A stretch of 64,000 bases of DNA from NCBI GenBank assembly GCA_965178125.1, contig OZ237759.1:62001-126000 (forward strand). Reading direction: 5' to 3'. A program made the position numbers and the translations under genes. The notes under the pieces were generated by a model. It did no database searches. It was not told the origin of the DNA and worked only from the letters and a program-made list of their open reading frames with translations. This document shows, piece after piece, positions 6,830 through 39,000 of the stretch (position 1 is the stretch's first letter; each line of letters begins with the position of its first letter). The stretch is from Bilabrum cf. latius (lineage: Eukaryota).

Positions 6830-7342
6830 TTAACCTGTTGCTGGCGCCTCTTGAATCTTGTGCTTAGCTTGAAAGCGAGCTCTATCCGAGGCTACTCTTT
6901 TGTGCTCGGCAACGAGCTTGTCGAGGAGCTTAGAGACGTTCGCCAAGTTCTCCGCCACGGCTGGCTTTACATCAGATACCTATCTCTAAGCAAGCACACC
7001 CCCAATCAAACGGAAGCACTTCCGTGTTCCCTCAAGCTTCCCTAAGATTGAAATTACCCGCCTGCAGGAGGTGCAATTCAAAGGGAACGGTTGGGCTGTA
7101 ATCTTCGAGTTTCGGAAGAGCTATATCATCACCAAAGCAGTACATACTCACTCATGCTCGGCCTTTTCCCTTTGGATATCTCCAATTTTGCTCTCCAGTG
7201 CATTCTCATGCTGCTGCAGCTGTCTGAATACATTCACTATCTCTTGTGGTGACGAAAATTCCCTGTCAAGAATGCTTTCCGTGCTGCCCGCCGGAGCAGC
7301 TGCGGCTGACTTTGTAGGGGTACTTCCACTTGTTGCAGCCAT
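6830..7342 (-). CDS. PFDN2: Prefoldin subunit 2
   Basis: QEIVNVFRQLQQ...KIGDIQREKAEHE|RVISILGKLEGTRKCFRLIGGVLA(TAG)R(TAG)VSDVKPAV matches the PFD2 core RKCYRMVGGVLVERTV. Intron 7062..7151. TAG at 6986 and 6980. Ends TAA at 6830-6832. The ORF track misses exon 2. Confidence 0.88.
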
Positions 7343-7584
7343 CTCACCCGTGAGACCAAAGTGTACCGAGGATACGATGACAGCAGTGGCCGCATTCGAA
7401 TCTGGTTTATCATTTTGTAACGAACAGGTTGAAAAAACGGAGAATGCCGTATGTCACAGGTACAAAGGGACAATCGGGGTTACTATCAAGTCGTCATAGC
7501 GAGTGCATACGTATTCTTGTTAGCATGCGCACACTGCCGCATGAATGGACTCCGTGACACATGAGCTGGTTTTGAAGTTGCAAC

Positions 7585-10500: not shown

Positions 10501-10662
10501 GATGAGGGGTTGGGTGGGCACGGGGGGTCACCATCCGCGGGCCTGCAGGTGGATGGAGAGGCGGAGGGAGAGGGGGGCGTGCATGTGGGGGTGCCGGTCA
10601 GTGCTCGGAGGTATTCAGAGGAAGGGGGACTGGGATGGAATGGACCTGGAACAACAACTTGA
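7585..10662 (+). CDS. Hypothetical protein, ~1025 aa, intronless, nine in-frame TAG codons
   Basis: ORFs 7585, 7957, 8512, 9400, 9838 and 10312 share one frame and are separated only by TAG (7900, 8413, 8455, 8920, 9073, 9262, 9301, 9718, 10267). No TAA/TGA until 10660. NLS-like KRPRE and KKRKL motifs. Confidence 0.7.
8380..8460 (+). repeat. 42-bp-period tandem duplication inside the CDS (GDAGSRNSSSP-TAG-K x2)
   Basis: GGYGATGCAGGCAGCAGAAACAGCAGCAGCCCCTAGAAG occurs twice, 42 bp apart. Confidence 0.85.
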
Positions 10663-10964
10663 GATCGTCTTACACACCAAAATAGCAGTTGACTAAGGCT
10701 TGTCATCATTGTCAGCGTCTGCCAGTGGCAGGTCAGGTGGCGCTGCCCGTGGCTCCAAGCCCGCCCGGGGGACTGCTCCATCAATCGAATAAGATACCAC
10801 GACACTGACTTAGCGGCCCAGGACCCCAACCCTCAATTGCTTGGTATTTCGGGGGTTAAGGGTTGTCACTGCACTGCCAGAGACTGGCAGTGGCAGCGTC
10901 AACAGTGCCTCCGCTCGCATAATCCGGAATCGAGGGATCCGACCGAAATCATTGTCTTGAACTC

Positions 10965-13150: not shown

Positions 13151-14838
13151 TCACATGTACGTCTTGGGGTCGATCTTGTCGGGCAGTGCCGGTACCTTGA
13201 CCGCGAACCGCTCCTATACCGCCGCAAGCGACTTCTCGTCCGTCTCGGTGGCCACGAAGGAGATGGCCAGGCCCTTGGTGCCGAACCGACCGGCCCTGCC
13301 CACGCGATGCAAGTACTGGTCCGCAGGGGGCTCCTATGACTTGTTATCGGGCTGGGGGAAGTCGTAGTTGATCACGATGTTGACGTTCTCCACGTCGATG
13401 CCTCGCCCGAACAGGTTGGTTGCCACGAGGATGCGGGCCGTGGACCGCTTGAAGCCCGTGTACAGTTCGATGCGCTTCTTCTGCGGCATGGAGCCGTTGA
13501 TGTGGATGGAGGGGAAGTTGCTTTCCTTAAGGAGGCGGTCGAGCTCCCTGGACCGGGCTGAGGTGGACACGAAGATGACCACCTGGTTGAAGTCCAATGA
13601 GTCGAGCAGGTCAATCAGCTTGCGGTTCTTCTTCGCGTCATCCAGTTTCACGAAATACTGCTGCAGCCCGTGCAAGGTGAGCTTGCTGTCTGCGTCCACG
13701 TAGATCTCATAGGGGTCCTGGAGGAACTTGTGGCACACGGGGCGCACTTCCTCCGAGAGCGTGGCGCTGAACATCATGACCTGCTTCTCGGGGGGAGTCT
13801 TGAGGAAGATCTTTTGGACCTGCTGGCGCATGTCGGCGCCGGCCAGCATCTTGTCGCACTCATCCACCACGAAGAACTTGACCTTGTCCGTCTTGAGCGC
13901 GCCCGTCTCGATCATGTGGAACACGCGCCCGGGCGTGCCCACCACCACGTGGGGCGACTTCGCCTGCAGCTCCCGCTGGTGCACGCGGTAGTCCACTCCG
14001 CCGAAGAGTACCATCGTCTTGATGGCAGGCTCCTTCATGAACTTGCTGAAGCGGTTGTACTCGTACCCGATCTGGAAGGCCAGCTCGCGCGTGTGAGCGA
14101 GCACAATGATGCTCGTCTCGCCGTCCTTGGGGACCAGCTGGTTCAATGTGGTGAGAACGAACACGGCCGTCTTTCCCATACCAGACTTGGCCTGGCAAAG
14201 GATATCCATGCCCATGATAGCCTGAGGAATGGCCTCGTGCTGGACTGCGAACTAGAACAGGGCAGCAGGAGTCATCTGAGCGTGGTTGGCCCTATAGCTG
14301 CGGCGAACCACACATACACTGGAGGCAGTGACCAAATGAATCACCGACGAGTTGATCTGAACCTCAATCAGCGGAACGCGAGGCGCAGCTGGCAGTCGAC
14401 ATGGATGTGGGCAGGGCGCCGGTGTTGTCGGGACCTTCACGCCCGCGAGGCTGGCCTCGGCGTGCTTGAAAGAAAACGCGCCCAACTTAAAACTCACCCT
14501 CCGAAGGGTTTTCAAAGCCGCACTCTACGATGGCCTTCAGAAGATCGGGCTTCAGCAGGAAGTCGCGGAAATCGGAAGAATGCACACCAACCTGGTGGCC
14601 CCTGCGGTATCACAAAGATATACGTACAGCATGAATGGATTGATACATCTATCGGTTTGAACAGTGCCAACCAATTGACGCTTTCTCGTGAAAACGCCAC
14701 AAACAGCGCCTCTTACTTCTTCCCGGCCTTCGCATCGTCCCCTCCTTCCGCCTTATCGGCCACAGCATCGGCGGCAGCCTCCTCCTCTTCGTCATATACG
14801 AGATCTTCTTCCTCCTTCGACGAAGCAACGGCGGCCAT
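13151..14838 (-). CDS. UAP56: DEAD-box (DECD) RNA helicase UAP56/SUB2
   Basis: [75 protein letters not shown]. Introns 14602..14716 and 14245..14497. TAG at 13334 and at 13214 (AAV-TAG-ERF, conserved VQxRF). Ends TGA. Confidence 0.95.
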
Positions 14839-14992: not shown

Positions 14993-16269
14993 ATGCTTGC
15001 CAGAGTTGCGCGTTCTGCCAGGAGTTTGTCTAGCAGCATGGTGCGGTCGTCCCGCGCCATGTCCACGTCTGCCAAGGTGTGGATTAACGCCGATACGAAA
15101 GTAATGGTACAAGGATTTACCGGAAAGCAGGTGAGCGCACGAAATTCACGCTTGGAGCACCTTTGGAAGCACAGAACAAGGCAATTCATCGTATGTTTTG
15201 CTGCGCAGTGTGTTTGTTTCGCATCCAGTCTTGGTTGGTGTCATGAACTGGCCAGCAAGCCCAAGCTGCGAACCTGTCGTGCTCCGAATGGTAGCGCTCC
15301 GCGAAGATGTTTTCCAGCCGTGTTTCACACCAATTGGCTGACCAGGACACTATAACATCTCACTGCATTGCATGCCGACCTTCAGCGCCAGCTTCTCTCT
15401 AGAATGCATGCAAGTCTTGGTACCGTCGCACGCAGGGCACCTTCCACAGCCAGCAGGCCATCGACTACGGAACAAACATTGTTGGTGGCACAAACCCCAA
15501 GAAAGCTGGCACAAAGCACTTGGATCGGCCCGTATTTGCCTCAGTGAAGGATTGTGTGAGCGAGACTGGCGCTGATGCGTCGGTGATCTTCGTGCCCCCT
15601 CCGCTGGCAGCCAACGCCGTGCTGGAGGCCATCGAGGCCGAGGTGCCTCTGGTGGTGTGCATCACCGAGGGTATCCCCCAGCAGGACATGGTGCGCGTCA
15701 AGAACGCCTTGCTCGCCCAGGACAAGACTCGCTTGATTGGTCCCAACTGCCCTGGCATCATTAAGCCAGGCGAGTGCAAGATCGGCATCATGCCCGGGTA
15801 CATCCATCAGAAGGGCAAGATCGGGATCGTGTCCAGGTCGGGCACGCTCACTTACGAGGCGGTGGCGCAGACCACCTCGACGGGCCTGGGCCAGTCCACG
15901 GTGGTGGGCATCGGCGGTGACCCTTTCAACGGGACGGACTTTATCGACTGCCTGGAGCGGTTCACCAACGACCCCGAGACCGAGGGCATCATCATGATCG
16001 GAGAGATCGGAGGATAGGCCGAGGAGGACGCCGCCGAGTGGCTCAAGGCCAACGGGGACCCCAGCAAGCCCGTCGTGGGCTTCATCGCGGGCCGGACGGC
16101 ACCCCCAGGCAGGCGCATGGGCCACGCCGGCGCCATTGTGAGCGGTGGCAAGGGCACTGCTGACGCCAAGATCGACGCCATGCGCGCTGCTGGCGTGCAC
16201 GTGAGCGAGTCTCCCGCGCAGATGGGCGTGCTCATGCTGGACGCGATGAAGAAGGCGGGCAAGGCCTGA
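14993..16269 (+). CDS. SUCLG1: Succinyl-CoA ligase alpha subunit, mitochondrial
   Basis: Arg/Ser-rich presequence, [41 protein letters not shown](TAG)AEE, and RRMGHAGA (catalytic His downstream of the TAG at 16015). Intron 15131..15435. Ends TGA. Confidence 0.95.
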
Positions 16270-16571: not shown

Positions 16572-19404
16572 TCAGTCGTAAATGTCATCGTCGTCGTCAT
16601 CCTCCATACCGCCCAGCTCGGGCACGGCCAGGTCGGCCCGCGCGAACATGCCCGCTGGCACTCTGTCGTCGCCTTCCCCTCCCGCCCCCGCGTTCACGTC
16701 CATTTGCGCCTCGAGCGCCTGCTTGTGCTGGGCGTACTCCTCCATGGCGCGATCGTCCACGGAGCGCTTGGTTGAGGCGCGCGCCTTCTGGAATGCCTCC
16801 GTGCTGACGGCCCAGTCCTGCGTGTCGTCGGAGGCCCTCTTGGTGGCCACTGAGTCGGCGCTACCCTCCGCCTTGTACTGCTTGAACAGGTCCATCATGC
16901 GGGTCAGCCGCTCCCGCACGCTGATCTTGACCGCCAGCTGGCACAGCCCTGCCACGTCCGAGCCGGTGAACTTGTCGCACGAATCGCACAGCGCCTGCAC
17001 GTCGACGTCCCTTGCCACGCAGGTCTTGCGCAGTACCGCCTTGAAGATAGCCAGGCGACCCTCGCGGTCGGGCAGCGGGATGTAGATCAGCTGGTCCAGT
17101 CGGCCAGGGCGCCGCAGCGCGCTGTCGATCTGGTCGGGCCGGTTGGTAGCTCCCACCACGAACACGTTCTTGCGCTCGCCCACGCCGTCCAGCTCGGTGA
17201 GCAGCTGGTTTACGGTAGAGTCCCCCGCTCCGTGGGACGAGGTGTCTCCTCCGCGCTGGGACGCGATGGAGTCCAGCTCGTCGAAGAACAGGATGCAGGG
17301 GGCCGCCTGCCTGGCCTTGTCGAACACCTCCCGAACGTTCTCCTCCGACTCGCCGAACCATTTGGTGAGCAGCTGCGGCCCCTTGATGCTGATAAAGTTG
17401 CTCTCGCACTCGTTGGCCATTGCCTTGGCGATCAACGTCTTACCGCACCCGGGGGGGCCGTACAGCAGCGCGCCCGAGGGTGGGTCCACTCCGAGCTCCT
17501 CGAAGTACTCGGGGTGCTTCACCGGCATCTCCACCATCTCACGCATGCTCTGCTTGACCTCCTCCAGCCCGCCAATGTCCGCGAACTTGACGTCCGGAGT
17601 CTCCACCACCACGTCCCGCATGGACGACGCCACCGTGATGGACATGGCCCCGTAGAAGTCCTTCATGTCGATCCTCAAAGAGTTCAGGTACTCGGCCGGG
17701 ATGTCCTCCTCCTCCATGTCCATCAGACCCTTGGCACTCCGGCGAATCGAGGTCACCGCTGCTTTCATGCACAGTGAGGCGAGGTCAGCACCAACGTACC
17801 CGTGCGTCACCTCGGCGAGTCGCGTCAAGTCAACATCATCCCCGAGCTTCATCTTACGGGTGAGGATCTGCAGGATCTCCTCCCTGGCGTCCTTGCTGGG
17901 CACCGGCACGATGATCTCCGTGTCGAATCGGCCCGCGCGCCTCAGGGCCGGGTCCAGCGCGTTGGGCCTGTTGGTGGCCCCGATGACCATGATGTGCACG
18001 TCTCCCTTGATCCCGTCCATGCACGTGAGGAGGGTGGCCACCACCCTGCGCATGGTCTCGTCTTGCGTCTTGTCCCTGTTGGGCGCGATTGCATCGATCT
18101 CGTCGATGAAAAGGATGGCCCCGTTGGCCACCTCATCCCCCTTGACGATCTCTTCCATGTTCTGGAACATGTCGCGGAGGGCCTTCTCGCTGCCTCCCCT
18201 CTGCCCGCTCATGATCTCGGGGCCGTTGATTGTCTTGAAGATGCACCCCGTCTCGTTTGCAATGGCCCGCGCGATCATGGTCTTGCCAGTCCCCGGTGGC
18301 CCGTGCATGAGCACTCCCTTGGGCGGGCGCACACCCAGCGTGCGGAAGAGGCGGGGGTGCTTCAGCGGCAGCTCCACGGTCTCCCTGATCTTCTGCAGCT
18401 GCTCCTTGAGCCCACCGATGTCATCGTACCCTATCTGGTTGAGGTCCGTCTCGCTGTCCTCCTGCGAGATCTTCTCCATCAGGTCCAAAGCGGTCGACTG
18501 CGCGCCCAGGTCCGTCCTCACAATCCCGTAGTCCTTGTCGTCCTGCGACTCGACCTCCTCCACGCGGAACCACACTTCGTTCATAGCGGCATACACGCAG
18601 AACAGGTCCCCCGCCCGCACCACGCGCTCCTCTGCCTGGAAGTACGGCACCAAAGCGATGCGGTTCAGGTCGCCGGTCACACCCTCCACAGTCTCCGCGA
18701 TGGGGGCAACCTTAACGGACCGCAGGTTCTGAGGAGTGGCAGGCTCGATGAATACCCTATCGGTTGGACTGACTGCCAGGTTCTTTCTTTGATTCTGGTG
18801 GATACCTACCTGTCCGACCGGCACCTCCTCGTCAGCTTCAACCTACAGAACAGTTGCGCGCTTCTTTCGCCCCTTGACCAAGACATAATCGTTTTCAAAA
18901 ATATCTAGCTCGTCCATTGAGTCAGGGTTCATACTGCACACGCTGTTCTCGTGCATGAACTTTACACCCTCCTCGCCATCCTGATTTTGGCCTCGATGCG
19001 ATACAAACCTCTGATCGAGTTGTGTTACACCTGCGATGTATGGCAATATAACATGTGCGGGCCGTATTCCATGTAATCAGAACGGCACAATGGATGACTG
19101 CAGGGTGCAGAACAGCCGGGACTTTGACGATCAGCATTCACCCAACCTGCACTGCATTTGCAGAGCAGCACACACTTCCCATCGACACCCCTCAACTATA
19201 GTTTAGTTGTTTAATCCAGCTGGCCAGCCTTTGATTGCTGCCATTCCATGCCAATCGCATTGGACAGGGGACGAGAACGCCGAATGCAGATCCCGGACCA
19301 ATCACACAATCCTCACTAAAAATGAACTTGCTAGCTCCAGGAAGCCTAGGTCCATCCCCTCCAGCACCTGATCCATCACCATCTGCGCCTCCAGCAGCAG
19401 CCAT
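16572..19404 (-). CDS. CDC48: CDC48/p97-family AAA+ ATPase (divergent)
   Basis: Two AAA modules (GPPGTGKT/FIDEID; GPPGCGKT/FFDELD), GYDDIGG, RPGRLDQLIYIPLPD, acidic C-terminus DDDDIYD, N-domain VLVKGRKKRATVL(TAG)V. TAG at 18843. Probable intron 19031..19316, first exon less certain. Ends TGA. Confidence 0.88.
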
Positions 19405-19591
19405 TATGTTCAAGGGGGTCTCAATATGCTCGCGTTTCGAGTAAACCGGGATCTTCCGGCGCCTAGCCTAAATCGCACTTTACAATTAAAATCTGGTTCC
19501 TCCTTTTGCTGGCCAATGATTCATACAGAGTAGGACACGCAGTGCCTGAGAGTCGATAAAATAAATTCAATACTTGATAACTGCGATTAAT

Positions 19592-22057
19592 ATGGCAGGA
19601 CAAGGACAAGGAGGCGGATTCAACCCAAATGCCCAGCCTTTCCAGCCAGGGCAAGGTGGCTACGGCGCGTACGCCCCGTATGGCGGTCAGTGTGAGACAA
19701 TTCCTGGCTACATTGAATGATTGCAAGGTAGTGTTGTGCAGGCGGTGCGGACAGCATCCGCTGAAGACCCTTTGTATTCCGAGGAATTGGCACGTTCCGA
19801 TGTTCCCATACTGCTCGCCTCCGCACTTGCAGACGGCCAGGCTCCCCAGGGTGCCTACGGTTACGGCGCATATGCGGGCCAGCCACAGGTTGCGGGCCAG
19901 GGAGGCGCATACGCCCAAGCAGCGCAGTTCCAAGCGGCAGCTGCTGCGCAGGCAGCTGCGGCCCAGCAGTACGGGGCTGCCCCTGGCGGGCTCGCTGTCG
20001 GAGCACCTGCTTTTGTGCCGCGAGGATCTGCGTTCGGCGGAGCTCCCGTCCCAGCACCGGCGCATGCGGCCGCCCCCGCCCCCGGTCCTGCCCCCGTGCA
20101 GCCATTCGTCGGTGGCGGCGCCGCGCCGGTGCCAGCAGGCATGGGCATGGGCGGCGAGGGCGGCATCACGCTGGATGCCATCATGGCGGGCAACAGCAAG
20201 GGGAAGGGCAAGAAGAAGGGAAAGAAGGGCAAGAAGGGTAAGGGCAAGGGCAAGGCTGCGGCCGCAGACCCCAGCACCGTGGGGGGCGGTCTCTTCGGTG
20301 CCCCCGACAGCTCCAAGGGTGCGGGGGCGGGCCCTCTCCGGATCGGGGACACGCCTGTCAAGGCCCCTGAGGTGGAGCTGAAGGGACCCTCGCTCTCATT
20401 GGCCGTCGGAGGGGTGACTGCGACTGCAACGGCGTCCACTGAGCCTGCTGGCGAGGAGGCCGCCGAAGCTGCCGCCGCGCCTGCTCCCGCCTCGAGTGAA
20501 GCCAAGGCAGATGCAGAATCAGCGCCTGAGGCAGCGACCCAGGCAGAGATGCCGCCTGCCGCTAGCGGTGCGGGGGGCACAACGGCTGAGGAGGAGGCAG
20601 CGGCCAAGGCAGCGGAGGCCAAGGAGGAGGAGGAGGCAGATGCTGCCGAGTCGCCCTCCTCCGGGGCAGCGAGCATGCTGGCGGCAGCCCGGACCCAGCG
20701 AGCGGCTTACAAGGCCGGGGAGGACGGGACGGATCCTCGTGAGCACTTCAACGTGGTGTTCATGGGGCACGTGGACGCGGGGAAGAGCACTCTGTCCGGG
20801 AACATCTTGTTCCTGACGGGCATGGTGGACGACCGGGTGATCGACAAGTTCAAGCGAGAGGCCAAGAGCAAGAACCGCGAGTCGTGGTTCCTGGCCTTCA
20901 TCATGGACACGAGCGAGGAGGAGAGGGAGAAGGGCAAGACCGTCGAGGTGGGCAGGGCGCACTTCGACACGGAGAACAAGCGGTTCACCATCCTGGACGC
21001 TCCCGGCCACAAGGCCTTCGTGCCCAACATGATCCAGGGGGCCTCTGCGGCTGACCTCGGGGTGCTGGTCATCTCTGCCAGGAAGGGCGAGTTCGAGACT
21101 GGCTTCGAGCGGGGCGGGCAGACACGGGAGCACACGCTGCTGGCCAAGACCCTGGGTGTCAGCAAGCTCATCGTGGCGGTCAACAAGATGGACGAACCAT
21201 CGGTGCAGTGGGCCGAGTCCCGCTGGCAGGAGATCCAGGACAAGCTCACCCCCTTCTTGAAGAAGAGCGGGTACAAGAGCAAGCACGTGCAGTACGTGCC
21301 CATCAGCGGGCTCAACGGGGCCAACGTGAAGGACCCCGTGGGCAAGGACGTGTGCCCCTGGTACGAGGGACCCTCGCTGCTGCAGGTACTGGACGACATG
21401 AAGCTGCCCCACAGAGATGCCACCAAGCCCGTGCGCGTGCCCGTGCTGGATCGGATCATCGACCGGGGCGTGGTGGCACTGGGCAAGGTGGAGCAGGGGG
21501 TCATCGAGGTGGGCCAGACGTTGGCCATCATGCCCACCCGGAAGCTGGCCAAGATCGAGGCCATCACGCTGGACGACGAGACAGAGGTGCCCCGCGCCAG
21601 GCCAGGGGAGAACGTGCTCGTCAGGCTCAAGGGGGTCACGGACGCGGACGTGCAGCGCGGCTTCGTGTTGTGCGAGCCCGAGGCACCGTGCCCCGCGGTG
21701 CGCACGTTCCAGGCGCAGCTGCAGGTGAGCGACCTGGGGGAGCGGTCCCTGCTGACGGCCGGGTACTAGAGCATCCTGCACGTGCACACGAGCGCGGAGG
21801 AGTGCGTGCTGGAGAAGATCGTGAGCGTGGTCAACAGCAAGACAGGCAAGGAGGAGAAGGCCAAGTTCATCCGCTCCCACGTTGTGTGCACGGTGGTCAT
21901 CAGCGTCAGCCAGAGCATCTGCGTCGAGAAATTTGCCGACACTCCCCAGCTGGGCAGGTTCACCCTCCGCGACGAGGGCGTGACCATGGGAGTCGGGAAG
22001 ATCGTGGGCTTGCCGCGCAAGCAGGTCGAGGCGTCCACCGAGCCCGTCACCAAGTGA
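19592..22057 (+). CDS. SUP35: Eukaryotic peptide chain release factor 3 (eRF3/Sup35)
   Basis: REHFNVVFMGHVDAGKST, KNRESWFLAFIMDT, GKTVEVGRAHF, DAPGHK, ARKGEFETGFERGGQTREH, NKMD, C-terminal GRFTLRDEG. PAM2-like FNPNAQPFQP at the N-terminus. Intron 19692..19832. In-frame TAG at 21767. Ends TGA. Confidence 0.95.
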
Positions 22058-22253
22058 AGGGGATCAAATCAGGTCGGAGTCGCAGTTTGAAAGTGGATTC
22101 TACTTCATTCCCAGCAGCTGTGTATTTTCCAGTGGAAATTAATTGCAAATATGACTTCTGCACAAATCTGGAGACTCTGGACGAGACTTGGCACGCCATA
22201 GAGATCTAGTCAAGAGTGCTGCTAGTGATAGCAATTTGAGTTCCGGGATGCAA

Positions 22254-25143
22254 TTACCATGGCCTTGTGGCTCCGTCCCGCCCGCTGCCCCGACTTGAGT
22301 GCCTGCTTCCTGCTGCGCTACTCCTGGTGGAGGATGCCCGATCCCCCCGTCTTCCGTCAGTGCCTCCGTGGTGCGTCTATTTGCCAATAATACCTTCCTC
22401 GCCACCACCTGTACGCAGCGGTGGTACTGGCGGTCGCCCAGATGGGGGTGGCCCTGGCCTGGAACCTCCTGAAAATTCTCCCGCCCTGCCATTGCCCTTC
22501 CCCCTGCCCCCGCCACTGCCATGCGCAGCAACAGAGGAAGACGCGTCTCCTGCCCGCCTCCGCGATCCCTCCCCCAAGCCAATTCCCTCCGTGCCCCTCT
22601 CCGGCACCGATGGACCTGGATCCTACTCTGCACCCGAGCCTCGGCCTGACCCCGGCATAGCCCCAGCCCCAGTCGCTGACACGCGGCTCCGACCCCCCTC
22701 GCTGTCCGCAATGCTACCCCTGCCACTGCCGCTGCTCCTGACACTACCACCATCGCCAGCTCCAGCCCCCGCCCCAGCCGAGTACAAGTTATACACGCAC
22801 ACGCAGCAGTCCTCCCCGCCAGTGACGATCTGCCGCCCATCCGGGCTCCACTGCACGCTGGTGCACGCGCCGCTGTGGGCCGCGCGCACGTAGGCCAGCG
22901 GCATCTCGCTGGATCCCGGTCCCCTGGCCAGCCCAGCACCCGCTGCCTCCTCCCCTTCCCCGCACATGAACACGCGCAGAGCACCGTCCCCAGTGGCCGC
23001 AGCAAGCAGCTCACCAGAGGGGCTGACCGCCGCTGCCAGCACCGCGACTGCAGGCGCCTCCCGAGCCTCTGCCACTGGGCGCTCGGGCGTGTCTGGGTCC
23101 CACAGCAGCAAACGCCCGTCTTTCTGTCCCGAGACCAGCTCCCGCTCCCCCGTGGGGCGCTGGGCAAGGGCCGTGAATGCCGCGGCACTGCGGCTGGGCA
23201 GCGCGAACCCGCCCACCCTCCTTTCGCTCTTGAGGTCGTACGTGAACACGCACCTGTCCTGCCCCACGCTGTGCACCAGGGAAGGGCTCCCTGCGTCTGC
23301 GATGGCCCCCGTGCACGGCCCCTTGTGCTCGCTGAACTGAAGCAGCAGCTCCCGGGTGCCGCGCGCCCACACGCACACCCTGCCGTCATCTCCCCCCGAC
23401 AAAATGTAAGACTTCTGCAGCTACACCGCTCGCACAGCCCCTCGATGAGCGTCCAGCTCCCACTGCATATCAGCGAGCGGTGCCTCCGCCGAGGACCGGG
23501 ACACAGCCAGGGCCCCCGCCGACGTGGTGCGGGTGCTGCGCTTGGCCATCCGCGCCGCCCCCGTGGGGAGGTTTCCCACCGCACCTTGGGGCGCGTGCAT
23601 CCGTAATTTGCCATCCTCCCACCCGCTTAGCACGCCTGCCAGGTCGGCCAGAGGACCCGGACCCCCGCGCTCCCCCGCAGCACCCCCCGAGGGAACAAGG
23701 GCCAGGGCCGTGGCACCTGGAGGGGCCGCCTTGCTGGTGCGGCCCCCGCCCACCCCGGTGCCCCCCGCGCTCACCAAGGCACGCATGAGCACCTGGTAGT
23801 CGCTCAAGTCCCACACCAACACCTCCCCGTCATCCGCCCCGGTGGCCACCACGTCAGGTCGCCCCGCCCCGAAGGCCACAGCGTGCACCCTGGCCCCATG
23901 GGACCGCTCCAGCACCTCCCACGGGAACTCTCCTTCCTCCTCTGCCCCCCGCTTGCGTCCGTGCGAGTCGCCCTCCTCCACCGGCACTGCGATCCGCACG
24001 ATGGATCCAGTGGCGGTGCCCGCCAGCACCCACGCACCCGACCTGCTGACCGACAGTGACGTCACCGCGGCGCCCAGCGCCCCATCCCCCCCGCGCGCCT
24101 CCCCAGTACACACCCAGTCCCGTCCAGCCCCGCTGAACCGCCGCACGCTCCCGTCGCCTCCGCCCGCGAGGACAGACGCATCGGCGGCCAGTGCGAGGGC
24201 CGTCAACCCCCCGGTGGTCACGGGGAACACGCCCACGAAGCTGCGGCCCTCCAGAGAAAAGACGGCCATCTCCCCTGCCGTGGTGCCCGCCACCAGGTAC
24301 CCCTCCGGCGTGCACACGGCTGCAGGAGTGAATCCCCGCCTGAGCCCGGTGGAAGGCAGCGAGGCCCGCTCCGAGCCCAGGACGTAGGCCATGGCGCGGG
24401 GATCGAACCGGAGCGGGCACATGAACACGTGCGTGCCGCGAGCACCTACGCAAAGAGTATATCCCGGTCTCCTGCCCAGCTGCTCCACGGGTCCCCACGC
24501 GATGAACTCGACGGGGCACCCCATAGGGCGGGTGCCTGCTCCCGCCCCGGCGCTGTCCTGGTCGAAGCGCTTCAGGGCCACCTGCTCGCCAGTGCGCATG
24601 TCCCAAACCATGACCACGCCATCCTGTCCCGCCGCCGCCAAGAAGCGTGCATCTGGCGAAAGTCGAGCGATTGCTACCCCCCCAGTGAGTCCGTACAGCT
24701 CAAAGACTGGCCGGGCAGGTGCTTCGGAAGCGCCAGCCGTCTCCTTGTCAGGCAAGGTCTCCCAAACGATGACAGGGGAGTCACGTCCCTGCGGGTATAT
24801 AGGCAGCATAGATTGAATACGAAACCCAATGAAAGTGAGATGATCAAGGTGTCGCGCTGATTACTGTGCGGGCTTCCAGTTTACTTACTGCAGCCGCTGG
24901 CGACTACATCTGTCCAGACACCAACAACTCGCCGCGCTCAGAGAAATCAATAGAAGATACGAACGCATCATGTCCTCTCAAAAATTGCTGCTCGTGTGGA
25001 TTGTTGATATCACATGAAACTATGTGAGCACCCATCGCTGCGAAGTACCGGTCGTCGCTAGTCGGGTCGCATGCCAGGGTACCCGCCTAATGGCCAGTAA
25101 ATCCAAGAATATGTTCAAGCTCCAGCGGCTCAAGTCGGCTCAT
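22254..25143 (-). CDS. WD40-repeat protein, CFAP52/WDR16-like
   Basis: N-terminal LELEHILGFTG and PHEQQFLRGHD typical of the CFAP52 family, plus several WD repeats (VATGADDGEVLVWD, LSGGDDGRVCVW, IVTGGEDCCVCVY). Intron 24789..24888. TAG at 25087, 24904, 23421, 22623, 22377. Ends TAA at 22254-22256. Confidence 0.78.
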
Positions 25144-25298
25144 TGCGCACGGTTTCAGGAGTATTTAGTGGATCTTGTCTCGCAACGGATCGAAGCTGGT
25201 TGCGTGCTGTTTCCGATATATTGTCGACGCCAGTTGCAGTTGCACAAATCAGACCATGGAGACTTGGTGGGATTACTTTTTGGCTGTTCATTAAACAA

Positions 25299-27674
25299 AT
25301 GGATAATGATGCAAAGACTTCATCATCTCATGGCCGCTCACGCATGTACCAGCTTAGCCATCTCCGTCCAATTTGTGCCAAAGTGTGCTGTCTGCTTGGC
25401 TTTAATGATGTGTGGAGAATGCGGAGTACAACGTCTGAAAACATCGTTCTACTATCTATGGCATCCTAGGGTATGCATGGGCTACAAGATGTTTCAATTT
25501 GCTCTCCAACAGCGAACAAAGTTGTGAAGCAAGTAGCAGTTTCGGGCTCACCTCGCATTCTCGCAGATGTGGCGGATCATGCGCCGAACATCCAGCAAAT
25601 TCGAATACTAGATGGATCATGGAAGGGGACCTAGTTGGGAGATGTACTGGAGTGGTGCGCTTCTAGCTCTTGGAGCAAGCAGCTGACCTATTTTGAGGTC
25701 ATTTCCCAAAAACTTGCTGAGGCAGCCTGGCACACATTCCTGGCAGCAGCTCCAGGCCTCACCGATCTGGACATCCGGGGTTGTAAGGGCGGTGCAATTA
25801 GTGGGCGCGCCAGCGCTGATTACGTCGCTGCTGCAGCAGCCCTTCAATCCCGGGGCCTGCGGTCCCTCGACGCCCTCGCAGCTTCCTTGTCCTACCAACG
25901 CATGCTGCCGCTTGTGGGAGCCACCTATGGGGAAAAATCCAGTGCAAGGGCTGATTCAGGTGCCAGTGTCACATCAACAGAGATGCGAGAGTAGCACAGT
26001 GCATTAGATGCTCTGGTGCAGACCAACGAGGAGTGGTTCCAGCAGCTGATTTGCTGCACGCACGAGTTAGACACTAGTGCTCATTCTGCGGCGAGCGGTG
26101 GACATCATTTCAGTAGCAGTGGCACGTCTGTAGTAGCGTTGCACAGCAACCATGCGGCATCGACCCCGGTCCAGACGCTTTAGCAGTCTTTGGCGAAGGT
26201 ACGCCACCTGTGCACTGCCCTCTCAGGCACGTGCCTCCATGCAAGCAGCCCTGCTGCAGCAGATGCGGGTGCGCCTCATTGTCCTGTCTCTGCCAGCAGC
26301 TCCAGCGCCAGCTCCAGCGCCAGCTCCAGCGCCAGCTCCAGCGCCAGCTCCAGCGCCAGCTCCAGCGCCAGCTCCAGCGCCAGCTCCAGCGCCAGCATTT
26401 GCACAAGCACCAGCTCTAGCATTAGCACCAGCTCTAGCATTAGCACCAGCAGGCTAGAGGTGCTCCGGATTGACGCTCACCCAGACTGGCCCGATGTGCC
26501 TCGTGCTCTGCTGGGAGCCATCGTGAGGTCCAGTCGACTCAGGGAACTGGTGCTGGTGGGCGCCCCGCCTGGAGTTGTGGCTGGCCTTGGAGCCGTGCTG
26601 CCTGATCGCCTTCAGCACCTGGAGCTGGTGTAGTGCAAGTGTAACCAGCAGTCTTTCGTTTCGATGGAATCTGCAGCTCTGGCATTTGCCTGCGACTGGT
26701 GGACAGGGGCCTCCAGAGGTGCCGGTGCTGGTGCTGGTGCTGGTGCTGGTGCCGGTGCTGGAGCTGGAGCTGGAGCTGGTGCTGGTGCCGGTGCTGGAGC
26801 TGGAGCTGGAGCTGGTGCTGGTGCCGGTGCTGGAGCTGGAGCTGGAGCTGGAGCTGGTGCCGGTGCCGGTGCTGGAGCTGGTGCAAGCCATGGATAGCCA
26901 CGCAGTTTGGCGAGGCTCACGCATGTCAATCTATCGCAGTCAACCGCTGTGGGATGCCTGGCGATGGCTGTGCCATCTGCCCGGTTGATCTGTTTGGCTG
27001 GTACTAGCTGCTTCAGAGGCACTGCGGAAGCGGGCGCGCGCGGGGTGATGGACAGACGGTGCACAGACATAGTGACCGCCATGTCCATCCAGAGCGCGTG
27101 CGCCACACTCACCCACCTTGATCTGACTGGCCTTGCAATTTCCGCCCGTGCGCTGTGGTGGCTGCTGCGCGGTGGTGACACAGCTAGGCCGCTGTCCATT
27201 CGTGACAGGCAGACAGACAGCGCGTTGTCGCCGAGTGCTTCGTCGTGTGCATTGTCAGCAGCATCGTCACAGCGCCACCTCGCATCTGGCAGTGACGCCC
27301 TCAATCAGCTGGAGCAGCTCCGACTGGAAGGGTGCCGAGGTGTGCCACGGAATTGGCGCCGGGCTGCCCGGGAGTGTCCTCGCAGGCTCGTGGATGCCTG
27401 TGTGCGAGCGACAGGGCCTGCCAGTGTGGAGCAGGAGCTGATGGGTGCCCAGGTGCAGGCGCAGATGGGCGCTCAGGATCAAAGCGGACTGGGTCGTCGC
27501 GGTGCTTCGCTACGGGTGCCAGCACGGGCAGGACAGAAACGATCTGCTGAATGCTTGCAGTATCGTGCATCTACTGGCGGCCCTGAGTCTAGCAGCAGCA
27601 CCAGCGCTGCTGCTGGTGTCGTCCATCCCAAGAAGAAGCTAAGGCTAGATGGTGACCCGACTGATGAGCCATAA
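25299..27674 (+). CDS. Leucine-rich-repeat (F-box/LRR-like) protein, ~791 aa
   Basis: LRR-like segments LTDLDIRGC, LEVLRID, LRELVLVG, LTHVNLSQS, LTHLDLTGL, LEQLRLEGC. Five track ORFs in one frame are joined by six TAGs (25467, 25632, 25992, ~26181, 26631, 26895). Ends TAA. The F-box is only weakly suggested. Confidence 0.7.
26297..26396 (+). repeat. 12-bp tandem repeat (CCAGCTCCAGCG)n, about 8 copies, encoding (SSSA)n
   Basis: Directly visible, and in frame within the LRR gene. Confidence 0.9.
26718..26885 (+). repeat. Hexamer repeat (GGTGCT/GGAGCT/GGTGCC)n encoding (Gly-Ala)n
   Basis: Directly visible, and in frame within the LRR gene. Confidence 0.9.
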
Positions 27675-27818
27675 TTGTGGCAAAATACGCCGTTGCGCCG
27701 GTTCTATTGGTCAGTTAAATCGATGAATCTACGGCAGGCCCAAATGTGTGTTTGTAACGTGATGATACGATTTTTATCAGCGATGCAATTGTTTTGCTCA
27801 GTCGTCAAAGGATACATC

Positions 27819-28892
27819 ATGGAGACAATCCTGGGTGTTGTAGGCAAGGAGTGAGTTGTAAATTGTCAGATGTAGTCTATGAGCACGCTGTTTTTGAATT
27901 TGTAATCTTCCCTCGTGGTGATGACCAGTCCGCACGGTCTTGGTCGCTCTGCAGTCTTGCCTGTAGTATCGAGCTCCGACTCGGCAGCCGCCCCAATACG
28001 TAGCATGTCCGAAAATGCATTTATCGATTGTTTCGCTTCATGTCGCAGTTTCGTCATGGTCTTGGCAGACAAGTCGGCAGCAAGGTCGATCCTGGCGTTC
28101 AAGCACGATGAAGACAAGGTGCGTTGTAGATCTTGCAGCTGTCGCCTACGTGCGCTTGCTATGCACAAGTATGTACTTCTATTCTTTGTGGCTTGCCTCA
28201 TATCGTAGATCTCGAAACTGGACGAGCACAAGGTGGTAGCAGCCTGTGGCGAAACTGCGGACAGAACGGCATTTACTGAGTATGTGCAGAGAAACATGGC
28301 GTTGGATGAGTTTAGAACAGGATTGCGAAGGACCACAGATGCTACCGCTCATTTCATTCGCGGTGAGTTGGCAACAGCTTTGCGGAAATCGCCATACTAG
28401 GTTAGCTTGCTGCTGGCTGGCTTCGATGACATCAGCGGGGGGAAGGCTGGCGCGGAGAAAACTGAAGCCGAGGCGGTCGGCAAAGAGTCGAAGGGGAAAG
28501 CATCGGCCACGGAGGCCTCCACGTCCGGCGTGGGGCCGTCCCTGTACTGGATGGATTACTTGGGTACCATGCAGCGCGTGAATTACGGGGCTCACGGCTA
28601 CGCTGCGTTCTTCAGCACATCCACGATGGACAGGTACTGGAAGCCTGGCATGACGGAAGAGGAAGCAAAAGACTTGCTGGCCACCTGCGTGGCACAGTTG
28701 AAGACCAGGTTCATCATCCACCAGCCCAACTTCACGGTGCGCGTAGTGAGCGCGTCGGGGGTCAAGGACGTCGAGCTGCCCACCAAGGTGCTGCCTGACC
28801 TGTCGGCCGCACCCAAGGCGGCAGCTGCAGGCGCAGGCGCAGCTGCAGTGGTTGGAGGGGGCAGCGCGGGGGCGGCTGCCATGGAGACGTGA
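27819..28892 (+). CDS. PSMB2: Proteasome subunit beta type-2 (beta4/Pre1)
   Basis: METILGVVGKD|FVMVLADKSAARSILAFKHDEDK|ISKLD..., FIRGELATALRKSPY(TAG)VSLLLAGFD, PSLYWMDYLGT, YGAHGY. Introns 27851..28048 and 28119..28208. TAG at 28398. Ends TGA. Confidence 0.93.
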
Positions 28893-31168: not shown

Positions 31169-31225
31169 TCTTGTTGCATCCTGTGTCAATCAAGGCTGTG
31201 CATGTTGGTACCAGCTCAATTTGTT

Positions 31226-33248: not shown

Positions 33249-33876
33249 CCGTGTCGATGGTGGGGGATCCGAGATTGACTACAAGGCAGTGACAAAACGC
33301 TTTGCCACTATTCGGCGACATAGAATATAAATGTACAGCCATTAATGACCGAATGCATCTACTGCCGGGTCGCAAATCTATACTGTGTCCAAGGAACAGC
33401 TCGACTTGGGCTGCCTTGGAGTCTCATCTGACCCAATTCAAGTTAGGCCAAATATACTGAAACTTTTAATCGTGTATACGATCTCGTGAATCCACAAATA
33501 TGTCCCCGTCATGCTTGGGGTTATGCTCGCCGATGCGATCTTCCTACGCTTGTCGAGCCTACCGGCCAGCCCCAACCATGATAGAACTGGACGCAATGCT
33601 ACCGCTGCTTGAAACAGGAGGTGTACATTTCTTTGCGGGTGTACGGCTCGCGTCCACTGTAGGAATACCTTCTGTATTTTAGGCGCGAGTGTGTTTATCT
33701 GGTAGTTGCCCTGGATTCAAACATAGTTTCGATTCAAGAAATCGGAAATACAGCCTCAGCCCGCTGGGCCCTCCCCCCGCCAATCTTGTCCTTTTCACTG
33801 CGTATTCAATACACATATGCCTTCTCAGTAAATTTATGCAGGCAATCAATAGTGTACCTCCCTCGTCAGCGGTGTA

Positions 33877-35874
33877 ATGCCTCTCGTTCGAGTACATGGA
33901 ACAGTAGTTGCAGTTGGACGGTCGAAGTCTCTCCTCCAGTACCCGGAGACTTTGGCCAGATCTGTTGAAGAGAAACATGGTGTACATATAGACCCAGCGA
34001 ATCAACGACGCTCTAAGCGCTATTTCATAGGCGCCATACCGCAGTTTGTGACCCGAGCCGACATATTCTCGTGTATTCAAAAGCTAGCTCACGTTGAGGA
34101 CATTTTTTTACCAAAGTCTTGCGGAGAGGAAAGCTCTCCGTCGTACCAAAGTGGTGGATTTGGATTTTTGCGAGCAGACGTCCGGTCTGACTCGGGTATT
34201 GATCCAGTGAATCCTGGTGGCGCGGCAGGGACGTGGCATGAGCTAGCCGTACCCCGACAACACGGTCAAGCTGTTCGAATACACATTAAACAGGCTTCCA
34301 ATCGGAAAAAGCTTGGCCATGGCGTCGATGATGCAGCAGACACCAACCGGGATGTCACGGCCAGCCCCGCAGCAGTTTCGAGCCGGGCTCCATCCCCTGA
34401 GTGTGTGGTATTCCAGGTCACCGTCCACGGGGCGGGCAAGGGCAGGGAGACGGCGCCTAATAGCATACTTCTCACCCTTCCACTGGGCCCTGGTGTGGCG
34501 CAAGGGCTCTGCAATGCTTTGGACACAGCGGGTGTGCCGCCCCAGCGCTCTGCCTCTGCCTCTCTGGTTGAGCTGGACCTGTGGGTGCCCGACTTGGTCT
34601 TAGCCAGAGGAATGGCTCCATCGGCGGCAACAGTAACAAGCCGACGCAGTGACTAGCGGTATGGGGTCTCCTCCCCTCCACCCCCTGCCGCTCTGGGGCT
34701 GGGGGTGTCGACGTATTCCAGCACGGGACCCATCCAAGGCTCTGTACCAGAAGCTGGTGCTGGTGCTGGTGCTGGCGCTGGCGCTGATATTGGTGCTGGT
34801 GCTGGTGCTGGTGCTGGTGCTGGTGCTGGTGCTGGTGCTGGTGCTGGTGCTGGTGCTGGTGCTGGTGCTGGTGCTGGTGCTGGTGCTGGTGCTGATATTG
34901 GTGCTGGTGCTGGTGCTGGTGCTGGTGCTGGTGCTGGTGCTGGTGCTGGTGCTGGTGCTGGTGCTGGTGCTGGTGCTGGTGCTGATATTGGTGCTGGTGC
35001 TGGTGCTGGTGCTGATACTGGTGCTGGTGCTGGTGCCAGCAGTGCTGGCTCCAAGGCACGCCCAGGGGGTGCTGCATAGCAAGAGGGTGCTGCATGGCAA
35101 AGGGATGCTGCATAGCAAGAGGGTGCTGCATAGCAAGGGGGCGCTGATGCTGGACCGCCACACAAGCGACATAGAGTGGACAGGTTTCCATCTGGCGCAG
35201 GCCTGGTGGCAGCAGTTGCAGCCACGTCCGAAAGGAATATGACCAGTACGGCCAGTGGCTCAGATACTCCGATAGCTCGGGGCAGCATGCAGCGGCCGGT
35301 CGCGTTTGGGCACTTGTCGGCGGGCCAGCAGTGGGCTGTGGTCGCTGCTTGCAGAGGTCTGCTTTCGGACGGTCGATCCACCCCTCCCGTGTAGGTAGTA
35401 CAGGCGGCGAGGATGGCCGTAGCATCGGGCACCGCGGGATTGAGCACGCGTGAGGGCAAGGGCCAGGGTAGTGGGGCGGTCGAAGAGGGTGGTGAGACTT
35501 GGCCCCAGCCTCTCGCCGCACTTGGCGCTGTCGGGGCGGGGCTGGGGCTGGGGGCCGCCTCGCCACAGCGGTCTGTTCCCCCGAGCGGGACGAGGACTGC
35601 CGGCGCGACTGCAGGGGTGCACCTCGGCGGTGGGGAGAAGCCAGGCATCGCGGCGGGCGCTGCAGGGGCGACAGGCCCGGGGGGTGCGCGTGTCACACCT
35701 GGTCTAGTTATGCGGGCTGCTCTTGCTAGTGGCAATGAGGCATGGGCAGGGGGTGGTGCGCATCTTGGGATCGGGCGGCTTGCGGATGCCATCGGAGTGC
35801 GAGGCCCAGTCGCGCTCCGGGACCCGCTGCTTGTGGCACTCGATCAAGCACCTGGGTGCAGCGTGCTGCTGTGA
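33877..35874 (+). CDS. Putative RRM-containing protein with long Gly-Ala repeat; 5' end uncertain, may extend toward ~33500-33600
   Basis: RNP2-like YFIGAIP and RNP1-like GGFGFLRA at RRM spacing. ORFs 33877, 34705, 35176 and 35413 are in one frame, joined by TAG 34654, 35077, 35113, 35131, 35392. Ends TGA. Confidence 0.6.
34753..35037 (+). repeat. (GGTGCT)n hexamer array with periodic GATATT interruptions, encoding (GA)n-DI-(GA)n
   Basis: Directly visible, ~285 bp. Confidence 0.95.
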
Positions 35875-36094
35875 GACAAGGACGCAACGTGCTGGGTCTA
35901 GCCATCTTCTGCATTGTGTAAATATGATAGTATAGGCTATAGCGACGGTGATGAATGAGAGTCTGTCTGGCTTGGTCAGGCCCTACATGGATTCCGAAAG
36001 CAAAACAATATCGGATACAGCTACACGCAAGCCAAGCGAACAACCCACCTAGTCACTCAAAATGCCACACACCCCAGATGTTCCCATATCCGGA

Positions 36095-39000
36095 TTACCA
36101 CGAACTGGTCGCCTTGCCGGCGCTCTCGTCCGCCCACAGCCGGTTCAGTCTCTACGCCGCTCCGAACAGCTGCGCGGCTACGGCGCGGTAAGGTACCTCT
36201 GCTACCCTCACGAGCTCCTCGGGCGACCGACGGTTGCCGAAGCACTGGCTGCCCGAAACACTGTCCAGCAGCCCCGTGCAGCAGATGCGCATCGGGATGA
36301 GCACGATGAGCGGCAGCAGCAGCCATACCATGATGAAAAGCGGCTGCTGATCCTCCGAGAACTAAGAGGCGTCTGCGTCCACGCCATCAAACACGGTGAT
36401 GAAAACGATCAGCGCAGAGGTGCCGTACATGCTCAGCAGCGACAGGTAGCTCAGCCCAGGCAAAAATGAGTCCCTGGCCTCGAGGTCAGCGGAGGTGCCT
36501 GTCCGCCTGTCCCGGGTCACCATGGTGGCCACCAGCCGGCGGCCTTCCATGAACGCGAGCACAAGGCCCAGGATGGGGGCCAGCGGCAGGGGCAGCGCAG
36601 CAAAAAGGCTCACGCACATGGCAGCCACAAGAAGGATGGCCTGTGAATGGGCAAGATCATACACCTGGGGTGTCTCCAGTCGGGTGGACCGCTGCAGCAA
36701 CGACGGCCCGCGACCCAGCACCGTCATGGGCCTTGGCGCTAGGCATGAGACGCTCGCACTGGCCACGGCGAGTCTCTGGGCGCGCGTGTGCTGCCTGAGC
36801 CTGCTGCGGTGTAGCTCTTCTTCGGAGTGCTGCCCCGACTCTGCTCGAGACCCGTGCCCGTGCTTCCGCTGGTGCCGCCTCACTCGCCGCGAGGCCGCCC
36901 CCTCCTGCGCGCCTGCCTCGCACCAAGAGGAGGAAGAAGCGGCAGAGGACGACTCGGCGCTCGACCCCGCCCTCGTCATCTGCCGCAGGACATCCACCAC
37001 GCGCTGCATCTGCAGCTGCGCGCTCTCGTTGCCCTTCTGTTCTCCCTTGCCTCTTCCTTTACCCCCACCTCTCTCTCCGCTGGAGCCACCGCCCGGCTTC
37101 AGCACAGCGTCAATCTTCGCACTCATGCGACTCGCCGCCATGCACCACCCCACCGCGTGGTCCACCGACACCTGGGCGCTCCGGCGGACGGGACCATCGA
37201 GCGCGTGCGCCTGCACGGCTGCTTGCTCCGCGGCGTGCCTCAGCGCGGGCCCGAAGAGCGCGGAGGAGGCGGGCTCCGGGGTGATGGGCTCCAGGGCCGC
37301 CCTCCACACGTGGTCCGCGCTGCAGGCCGCTGAGGAAGACGGGGCGTAGATCTGGGCCAACGCGGCCTCCTCCATGGCGCACAAACCCGCCACCCGCTGG
37401 TGCGCGTACTGCAGACCCGCGTTGTGGGCCGCCACCCAGAGGGCCCGCCGCGCCCTCGTCACACCCGCCGTGCCCCTGGTGGCGCCCATGAGCACGTCCT
37501 TGGCCTCGTCCAGCCGCTGCCTCTGCCGCTTGAGGCTCTGCATGACCTCCAGCGCCCGCTCGCTGTTGGAAGCCCACTCCAGCAGCACCTGCCGCACCTG
37601 CGCGGCGGTCTCTAGTTTCTGCACGCCGGCACCCGGGCCGCCCCTGCCCCCGCGGCGCCTGCCCCCTTGCACCACCACCATGGACCCGTCTGTGGACGGC
37701 GGGGGGTCCTGGCCCGACGATACGGCGGCTGCCGCCTCCCGTTCGGCCTGACGCAGCAGCTTCTGCAGCCTGTGAACGATCTGCAGTGCCCGCTTGTGGG
37801 CCGCGCCCCACGCGTCCCGCATCGCGTCCAGCTGCTGCATGCGGCTCTGCATGGCTGCCAGCCCGATCCGGACCGCCTTTGACACGCAGGCTGGTGCGGT
37901 TCCATACGGCCCGAACCCATTATCGTCCCGGGTACCCAGCGACTGCTGCCCCCCGGTCCCGGCCCCAGCCGCCTCTCCCCCCGCAGCCTGGTCGCCCATC
38001 TCCCAGTGGCTCGAGTCGGCCAGCTCCACAGGGGCGCCCATCTGCTGGAAAGACCTCTTCTCGAAGACGCCCTGCCGCCGGGTCGCGCCGTCCTTGTCGG
38101 CACTCCCCGCGCTGCCGCTCAGGTCACCGCCCACCCGCGCATGGGCGTCCTGCGCCGCCTTGCCCGCGTTGGGTGTGCCCACAAGGTCCTCGAACACCAC
38201 CCGCGTGCCCCTGTCCGTGGACGCAGGACGCAGCCGCTGCACGGCGCGCTACACCAGCGGAACGCAGCCCGCGCACCTGAGCTCATCGAACACCATGGAC
38301 TGCACTACGTGGCTGCGCGTGGCGGCGTCCAGCACCTCGCAGTGGCGCGCGTCCAGCACAGCATCGGTGATGTCCGACAGGGGCTGAGGCAGGGCCACTG
38401 GGTCGGCCACTGGCCTGGACTCGCCCTGCACCGCAGCCTTGATGTATCCGGAGTTCTTGGGTCGCCTGGCGGAGCCCGCCCTGTCATGCAGCACGTCACT
38501 CTGGGTGGCGCCCCCCTGCCCGTCCAAGGCCGCAGCTGCTGCACTCAGTGCCACTGCAAACTCATGCTGAGACAGCTCCTCACGCATGTCGTCCGCCTGC
38601 CGCAGCTGGCTCAGCACGTGCGACCTGCGGAGCATTGCAGCCGACACTGCTCTGCTGGCGTTGGGGGCCCCAGGCCATGCCGATCCCCCTGTGCCCACGA
38701 CCGCCACCTCTCTGGCGAGCGCAGTGGTGTCCGTCTGCCACTTGACAAATATGGAGCTCCATGGGACGGTCCCTGCCAGCATCGGGTTGGCGCTCCTCAG
38801 CTGCGAGGCCGTCTCGAGGCCCAGAGAGACAGATGAGCCCCAGGAGTCCCGGTCGCGGCGCAGTGCCGAGGGGATGCCCGTGTCGTAGGTCTCACTACCT
38901 GCACCGGACGCCAGGGACTGCACGGCAGTCGAGGCCTACGCTATCTCGGTGGAGCTGTAGACGCCCCCGGCCGTGGCAGACTCATCCGCCAGCGAGGCCC

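Follow-up and report, generated by a model that had tools for sequence, protein, structure and literature searches.

Gene content of the window

The window analysed here, a 64-kb stretch of nuclear DNA (positions 62,001 to 126,000 of contig OZ237759.1, assembly GCA_965178125.1, Bilabrum cf. latius), derives from an intron-poor flagellated eukaryote and has a GC content of 63%. The subject of this report is the code in which its genes are written, in particular the meaning of the codons UAG and UAA. Once TAG is read as a sense codon, Pfam matches reveal eukaryotic nuclear genes of an ordinary kind on both strands. These encode MCM2, SNW1/SKIP, a prefoldin subunit, 6-phosphogluconolactonase, a DDX39B/UAP56-like helicase and the alpha subunit of succinyl-CoA ligase; a CDC48-like AAA ATPase, the release factor eRF3, a CFAP52-like WD40 protein, a proteasome beta subunit and CFAP298; as well as an isochorismatase, an NF-YA-like protein, a PRPP synthetase, a protein kinase, a PhoPQ-related protein and a bromodomain protein. 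Several further long open reading frames (ORFs) could not be assigned to a family, one of which spans 3687 codons. The features that bear on the code are listed in Table 1.

Introns are short and few. Nine are backed by GT..AG joints present in contigs of runs X5-X7 and missing from the DNA run X1. The donor sequence is GTGAG in six of these nine introns, while GTGCG, GTAAG and GTGAA are found in the remainder. Runs X5-X7 were taken as transcript-derived on the strength of their spliced joints; X5 is labelled 'probably DNA', yet it features five GT..AG joints. The comparison with read contigs concerned one 20-kb part of the window, which takes in the stop codons at 22254 and 27672; the TAA codons at 6830 and 36095 lie outside it. 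Across these 20 kb, a single letter difference was listed (position 26496, run X6). Contigs covering eRF3 end at 22149 and 22162, and the X5 contig of the ORF at 25101-27671 ends at 27735; these are not evidence of transcript ends, and nothing was inferred from them. No listed piece covers the 3' end of the WD40 transcript.

TAG is a sense codon read as glutamine

The summed length of ORFs of at least 300 residues is 18,324 aa under the standard code, 35,492 aa when TAG is sense and 21,937 aa when TAA is made sense instead. In 22 coding segments of the window, comprising 15,615 codons, 72 in-frame TAG codons were counted. Three of these sites fall in regions that can be aligned with solved structures. 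Across two solved chains at each site, glutamine occupies the corresponding position in five of six cases and arginine in the sixth, which is found in one of the two chains aligned at residue 702 of MCM2. The remaining TAG codons of the MCM2 and DDX39B-like ORFs are located in unaligned inserts or 5' of the aligned part.

A metagenome contig of 8,871 bp, hereafter L001, was found by scanning metagenome contigs with the C-terminal part of eRF3. L001 and the window share a gene order consisting of the AAA ATPase, eRF3 and WD40 genes and the start of the next ORF. The two eRF3 proteins are 93% identical, nucleotide identity ranges from 69 to 80%, and the GC content of L001 is 55%. In L001, ORFs of at least 200 residues total 4,366 aa with TAG as sense, versus 1,532 aa when the standard code is applied. 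Over the four orthologous genes, 2,363 codon pairs could be aligned, 1,583 of which are identical. At the nine TAG sites in which at least seven of ten flanking residues are identical, the partner codon is CAG in five, and CAA, AAG, AAC and GCA in one each. When all 29 aligned TAG sites are considered, the partner is CAG or CAA in 11, and the others lie mostly in the fourth gene, which is only 30% identical. For instance, the TAG of eRF3 within the LTAGY-Q-SILHV sequence is matched by CAG, while in the CDC48-like gene three other well-conserved positions feature TAG in L001 versus CAA or CAG in the window. The same code is thus, on sequence evidence, used in at least one related species.

Contigs with spliced joints (X5-X7) retain the TAG codons at 16015, 18843, 21767, 28398 and 29314 without letter change; the TAG-bearing genes that they cover encode SCS-alpha, the AAA ATPase, eRF3, the proteasome subunit and CFAP298. 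This excludes editing as the explanation. In this DNA, TAG is sense and is read as glutamine.

The product of the CDC48-like gene (16572-19414, minus strand) is a divergent paralogue that shares about 50% identity with canonical CDC48/p97; no CDC48_2 domain match was obtained.

TAA is absent from coding frames

Neither TAA nor TGA occurs in frame in the 15,615 codons, while the other two frames of the same 22 segments contain 22 and 47 TAA triplets. Glutamine is encoded by 75 CAA and 539 CAG codons in the window. Assuming that TAA tracks TAG as CAA tracks CAG, about 10 in-frame TAA would be expected if the two codons were coupled, and the probability of finding none is about 4e-5. The 2,363 aligned codons, the limits of which are set by homology, likewise contain no TAA in either species. 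The L001 side of this alignment features 19 TAG, 29 CAA and 53 CAG codons, from which about 10 TAA would be expected, and none was seen.

When the frames of real genes are followed from TGA to TGA, every TAA is intronic or maps to the 5' flank or the 3' end. For instance, the intron preceding exon 2 of the PRPP synthetase gene contains two TAA that share the frame of this exon (Table 1), and the kinase domain is interrupted by an intron, not by TAA. TAA is not used as a sense codon in this DNA.

In the bromodomain gene, an in-frame TGA (62916-62918, minus strand) separates ORFs of 248 and 993 codons. The triplet is part of a GTGAGC donor sequence and is likely to lie within an intron.

Four genes end at TAA

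Twenty-three gene ends could be defined in the window. Nineteen are TGA, four are TAA and none is TAG. All four TAA stand at the end of long ORFs, which stay open only when TAG is sense. The next in-frame TGA is found 42, 69, 60 and 14 codons further on, respectively, for the stops at 6830, 22254, 27672 and 36095, and the joint chance of such positions, had each TAA been placed at random in its own frame, is about 4e-6. In 150-nt segments flanking three of the TAA, the GC content is 0.64, 0.57 and 0.68 before the codon and 0.44, 0.43 and 0.50, respectively, after it, while the drop is smaller at the prefoldin gene (0.53 versus 0.50); TGA stops are accompanied by similar drops. In three of the four genes, the frame obtained by reading through TAA overlaps the sequence of a neighbour, namely the coding sequence of SNW1, the 3' end of eRF3 and exon 1 of the proteasome gene.

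The strongest single result for termination at UAA comes from the WD40 gene. The C terminus of the protein (...ATRPW) is conserved between the two species, reading ...SRHSSRGSGRDGATRPW followed by TAA in the window, and ...SRHSSRGSGQGGATRPW followed by TGA in L001. Similarity between the two sequences ends exactly at the stop, and the conserved end is preceded by a low-complexity tail. Translation in this comparison passes a TAG located 46 codons upstream of the stop. This exchange of TAA for TGA at orthologous positions shows TAA in use as a gene end. The read-through frame would reach a TGA at 22047, beyond the eRF3 stop at 22055-22057.

In the PFDN2-like gene, exon 2 matches positions 34-101 of the 106-position Prefoldin_2 profile at residues 3-70 of 77, and TAA follows seven codons past the match. 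Read-through would add 41 codons up to a TGA at 6704, antisense within SNW1, the stop of which maps to 6787-6789. The TAA of the 857-codon ORF at 25101-27671 is spanned by an X5 contig (26889-27735) without joint or letter change. Its read-through frame ends at a TGA (27852-27854) located within the GTGAG donor of proteasome intron 1, and proteasome exon 1 falls inside this frame.

The fourth TAA closes the 3687-codon ORF, which features nine in-frame TAG and no Pfam family. The last 800 residues yielded six matches among 1.84 billion representatives. One relative (P0363), 71% identical, ends nine residues before the TAA, and a homologue of 30% identity stops about as far from the last conserved block, so that the C terminus is bounded to about 10 residues. 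The conserved part of this protein corresponds to the C-terminal 200 residues or so, which look hydrophobic by eye.

A first-pass annotation, made from the sequence alone, had placed TAA stops at 6830, 22254, 27672 and 36095, and all four positions are borne out. It had counted 25 gene models, 21 of them ending at TGA; the four TAA ends stand, while the totals are to be replaced by those given above. Its statement that coding regions are free of in-frame TAA holds for all the codons that were counted, in the window as well as in the alignment of the two species. The collisions it predicted on read-through, of the prefoldin gene with SNW1 and of the WD40 gene with the end of eRF3, were both recovered. 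Its view that UAA is a stop while UAG is sense agrees with the WD40 exchange, the absence of in-frame TAA, the drop in GC at three of the four sites and the three read-through collisions.

The base following TAA is T in all four cases (TAATTG in three, TAATCC in one), and the WD40 stop of L001 reads TGATTG. Downstream of the 19 TGA stops, G is found in eight cases, T in six, A in three and C in two. Four TAA stops are too few for the following T to be called a termination context.

The ORF at 33832-35874 (plus strand, 680 codons) has a GC content of 0.74, 0.64 and 0.49 at the three codon positions, and long ORFs overlap it on the opposite strand. Neither the frame nor the strand is certain, which places its TGA among the less secure of the 23 ends. 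Contig depth at 34134-34790 climbs into the thousands, and false joints tie 20227-20638 to 34753, from which it follows that the repeat unit is abundant in this genome. Microsatellites coding for Gly-Ala, Ser and Lys-Gly runs are found inside ORFs at 26713-26888 and 34791-34894, and also at 20226-20255.

Table 1. Features of the window that bear on the meaning of TAG and TAA (positions within the window)
Feature	Position	Strand	Details
In-frame TAG, MCM2 residue 443	2848-2850	-	Q in PDB chains 6raw_2 and 8q6o_A; invariant motif position
TAA stop, PFDN2-like prefoldin	6830-6832	-	Coding sequence 7342-7152 and 7061-6833; intron 7151-7062
Two in-frame TAG within Prefoldin_2 domain	6988-6990, 6982-6984	-	Pfam match
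In-frame TAG, DDX39B/UAP56-like helicase residue 441	13214-13216	-	Q in PDB chains 9dlp_D and 8enk_A
In-frame TAG, CDC48-like AAA ATPase	18843-18845	-	AAG in L001; unchanged in X5-X7 contigs
In-frame TAG, eRF3 (LTAGY-Q-SILHV)	21767-21769	+	CAG in L001, flanks identical at 10/10; unchanged in X5, X6 and X7 contigs
TAA stop, WD40 gene (CFAP52-like)	22254-22256	-	ORF 22257-24860, 868 codons; WD40 Pfam matches
TAA stop, ORF 25101-27671 ('LRR protein' of the first-pass annotation)	27672-27674	+	857 codons; X5 contig across
Exon 1, proteasome beta-subunit gene	27819-27850	+	ATG at 27819; joint 27850>28049 (GT..AG) in X6 and X7; Pfam match
TAA stop, 3687-codon ORF	36095-36097	-	ORF 36098-47158; next TGA 14 codons on
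Intron, PRPP synthetase gene	48978-49115	+	Borders GTGAG...CAG; TAA at 49055 and 49076 in frame with exon 2; exon 1 is MVVMSGNAHPILASGI

Assignment of the code and alternative readings

The nuclear code used in this DNA is very probably one in which UAG specifies glutamine and termination is left to UAA and UGA alone, as in NCBI table 15. In the window, UAG is found at conserved glutamine positions, UAA is missing from coding frames and present at gene ends, and UGA is a terminator. In-frame UAA at glutamine positions, the hallmark of table 6, was found neither in the coding segments of the window nor in the aligned codons of L001. No codon serving both as stop and as sense, as in the codes of the Condylostoma and Blastocrithidia type, was encountered among the 23 genes, in which TAA occurs at ends only and TAG internally only.

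UAA might still have a double meaning set by context, acting as a stop near the 3' end of the mRNA and occasionally as a sense codon inside genes. Such codes exist, as described in PMC5304391, and the approximately 18,000 codons surveyed leave room for very rare internal use. Internal TAA are nevertheless nil in both species, versus 72 internal TAG in the window and 19 in L001, and nothing in the data calls for a second meaning. We consider this reading very unlikely.

More unlikely still is that UAA and UAG both encode glutamine, as in table 6, with UGA as the sole stop and TAA merely rare in 64 kb of GC-rich DNA. TAA is indeed the rarest of the three triplets on the two strands of the window (363, versus 748 TAG and 1494 TGA), A-ending codons are disfavoured, as evidenced by a CAA/CAG ratio of 0.14, and 19 of the 23 genes end at TGA. 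Yet this reading would require about 10 TAA in the window and a further 10 or so in L001, where the GC content is lower, and none was seen. Gene frames contain just four TAA, each of them 14-69 codons ahead of the next TGA and at the point where the GC content drops. Moreover, the orthologous WD40 genes stop at TAA in one species and at TGA in the other, and read-through would overlap adjoining genes.

It is scarcely credible that the four TAA belong to unrecognised introns with GTAA-type donors, the genes continuing in another exon. GT does precede or overlap TAA in three of the four cases (GGT TAA, TGG TAA and TGG TAA), but donors supported by RNA are unlike GTAAT or GTTAA, and a GTGAG-type donor is found at none of the four TAA. 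Moreover, the X5 contig is unspliced over the TAA at 27672, and TGA takes the place of TAA in the WD40 gene of L001. For three of the genes, a convergent neighbour is close by, with 40 nt to the stop of SNW1, about 200 nt to that of eRF3 and 220 nt to that of the ORF at 33832-35874, so that a further exon would find no room.

The idea that TAG and TAA are standard stops altered by RNA editing, or that the TAG-bearing genes are pseudogenes, has nothing found in its favour and can be dismissed as hardly conceivable for the genes covered, as the spliced-joint contigs keep five TAG with a single difference in 20 kb, and the TAG-bearing genes of the window include single-copy essential ones (MCM2, eRF3 and the proteasome gene) conserved at 71-87% amino-acid identity with L001.

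Several points weigh against the assignment of UAG to glutamine with UAA kept as a stop. The 22 coding segments are bounded by TAA and TGA, and the absence of TAA from them is hence partly circular. At a GC content of about 0.8 at third codon positions, TAA is rare anyway, and the expectation of about 10 in the window is modest. The sample is small: the two species together supply about 18,000 codons, and 23 gene ends were available. The comparison of orthologues was possible for just one of the four TAA stops, that of the WD40 gene, and the 3687-codon ORF is the weakest of the four cases, with an alternative end 14 codons away. Elsewhere in the genome, UAA may be used rarely as a sense codon in particular contexts, and some genes may end at TAG, although none of the 23 examined here does.

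How the two codons would be told apart

A glutamine tRNA with the anticodon CUA may account for the sense reading of UAG; as C34 pairs only with G, such a tRNA would decode UAG and not UAA. A tRNA with the anticodon UUA, in contrast, would read both codons. On the termination side, UAA and UGA would remain stops if eRF1 recognised a third-position G less well. An ARAGORN search for tRNA genes yielded none in the window or in L001-L004 (L002-L005 being further metagenome contigs described below) and a single tRNA-Ala in L005. Rfam matches are likewise nil in the window. The eRF1 gene was not found in the 64-kb window; the eRF3 gene is present there (19833-22057, plus strand). eRF3 is not the codon-reading factor.

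Lineage and standard-code neighbours

Sequence comparisons point to a Cafeteria-related stramenopile as the source of the window. MCM2 has no close named relative, its best matches being 60-69% identical. Among named proteins, the AAA ATPase is best matched by one from Cafeteria roenbergensis, with 62% identity across 43% of the query. The eRF3 matches are headed by the organism's own protein (100%, in Logan) and that of L001 (93%); the best credible named match is again from C. roenbergensis (63%). In a quick tree of eRF3 proteins (LG+G4), the window and L001 form a pair (SH-aLRT 100) on a long stem, which adjoins the Cafeteria group (SH-aLRT 85). The tree was built from 32 of the 120 best matches listed, taken from the top of the list together with named plants and algae. 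The placement is provisional because no other stramenopiles are included. Cafeteria is the host of a giant virus.

The stem branch of the eRF3 pair (19833-22057 in the window, plus strand; 1639-4044 in L001) measures 0.57 changes per column, versus a median of 0.23 for end branches.

Four other metagenome contigs, L002-L005, encode eRF3 proteins of 57-58% identity and have a GC content of 65-72%. Their ORFs gain little or no length when TAG is read as sense, and these contigs appear to use the standard code. Further contigs, L006-L013, are short or distant, and the neighbourhood is judged here from L002-L005. A coding GC signature was detected in 23 of their 96 ORFs of at least 250 residues, and a rough count of the ends of these 23 gave nine TAG, six TAA and eight TGA. 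TAG was thus probably not rare as a stop near this lineage, and TAG stops would have been common before the change, as far as these contigs can tell. As the code is not seen in the next-nearest contigs, it arose within the lineage of the window and L001. The frequency of TAG among these stops (9 of 23) would speak against GC pressure having simply removed the codon.

Comparison with known codes and significance

Codes of table 6, in which UAA and UAG both specify glutamine, are used by many ciliates, by dasycladalean and other ulvophytes, and by others. The code described here resembles them in that UAG is glutamine, and differs in that UAA is not sense.

A code with UAG as glutamine and with UAA and UGA as stops, corresponding to NCBI table 15, is described for the fornicate Iotanema spirale in PMC5304391. 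According to that account, UAG occurs at glutamine positions of I. spirale genes, convincing in-frame UAA or UGA are lacking, UAA is kept as a stop, and apparent in-frame UAA proved to be intronic, all of which has its counterpart here. The two cases differ in several respects. I. spirale is an anaerobic metamonad known from a transcriptome, in which UAA is the main stop (PMC5304391). In contrast, the DNA analysed here is a GC-rich genome from an unrelated, apparently stramenopile lineage, in which UGA is the main stop (19 of 23). UAG alone is also reported to be glutamine in Protocruzia tuzeti and in two phyllopharyngean ciliate lineages (PMC11687900). These ciliates have the same codon table, whereas the window is 64 kb of GC-rich DNA that features genes on both strands, spliceosomal introns and an eRF3 that groups with Cafeteria rather than with ciliates.

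Codes in which the two codons are uncoupled also include those of the rhizarian exLh, with UAG as leucine, of Scotinosphaera, with UAG as serine, and of an oligohymenophorean ciliate, with UAA as lysine and UAG as glutamate (PMC5304391, PMC11687900, PMC10553269). UAG and UAA are split alike in all of these, the amino acid being glutamine in the present case. Candidate changes in eRF1 are proposed in PMC5304391 for two such lineages, namely T32G, within the Iotanema GTS motif, and L69A, in exLh.

Changes of the nuclear code are rare, and UAG and UAA nearly always change jointly. The first-pass annotation had presented joint change as the rule in eukaryotes, in agreement with PMC5304391 as far as that source goes. 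It had overstated the novelty of the split, as a change to glutamine restricted to UAG is already described in PMC11687900. The uncoupling of UAG from UAA is itself known, and what is new is the lineage. A literature search, with subscription journals and supplements outside its reach, found no report of a nuclear code with UAG as glutamine in a stramenopile or a bicosoecid. We tentatively suggest, at somewhat less than even confidence, that this is the first change of the nuclear code in stramenopiles, having occurred independently of metamonads and ciliates in a Cafeteria-related free-living clade of at least two species (with GC contents of 63% and 55%).

For annotation, the consequences are direct. 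Use of the standard code would break most genes of this organism, while use of table 6 would wrongly extend about one-sixth of them.

Each independent split of UAG and UAA constrains how eRF1 distinguishes a third-position G from an A, as well as whether a tRNA with the anticodon CUA is sufficient on its own. The present case offers a cellular lineage outside the ciliates with an assembled genome, spliced transcripts in public runs, a second species and standard-code relatives nearby. Given these relatives and the second species, the order in which the tRNA was gained, eRF1 changed and TAG was lost as a stop should therefore be reconstructable.

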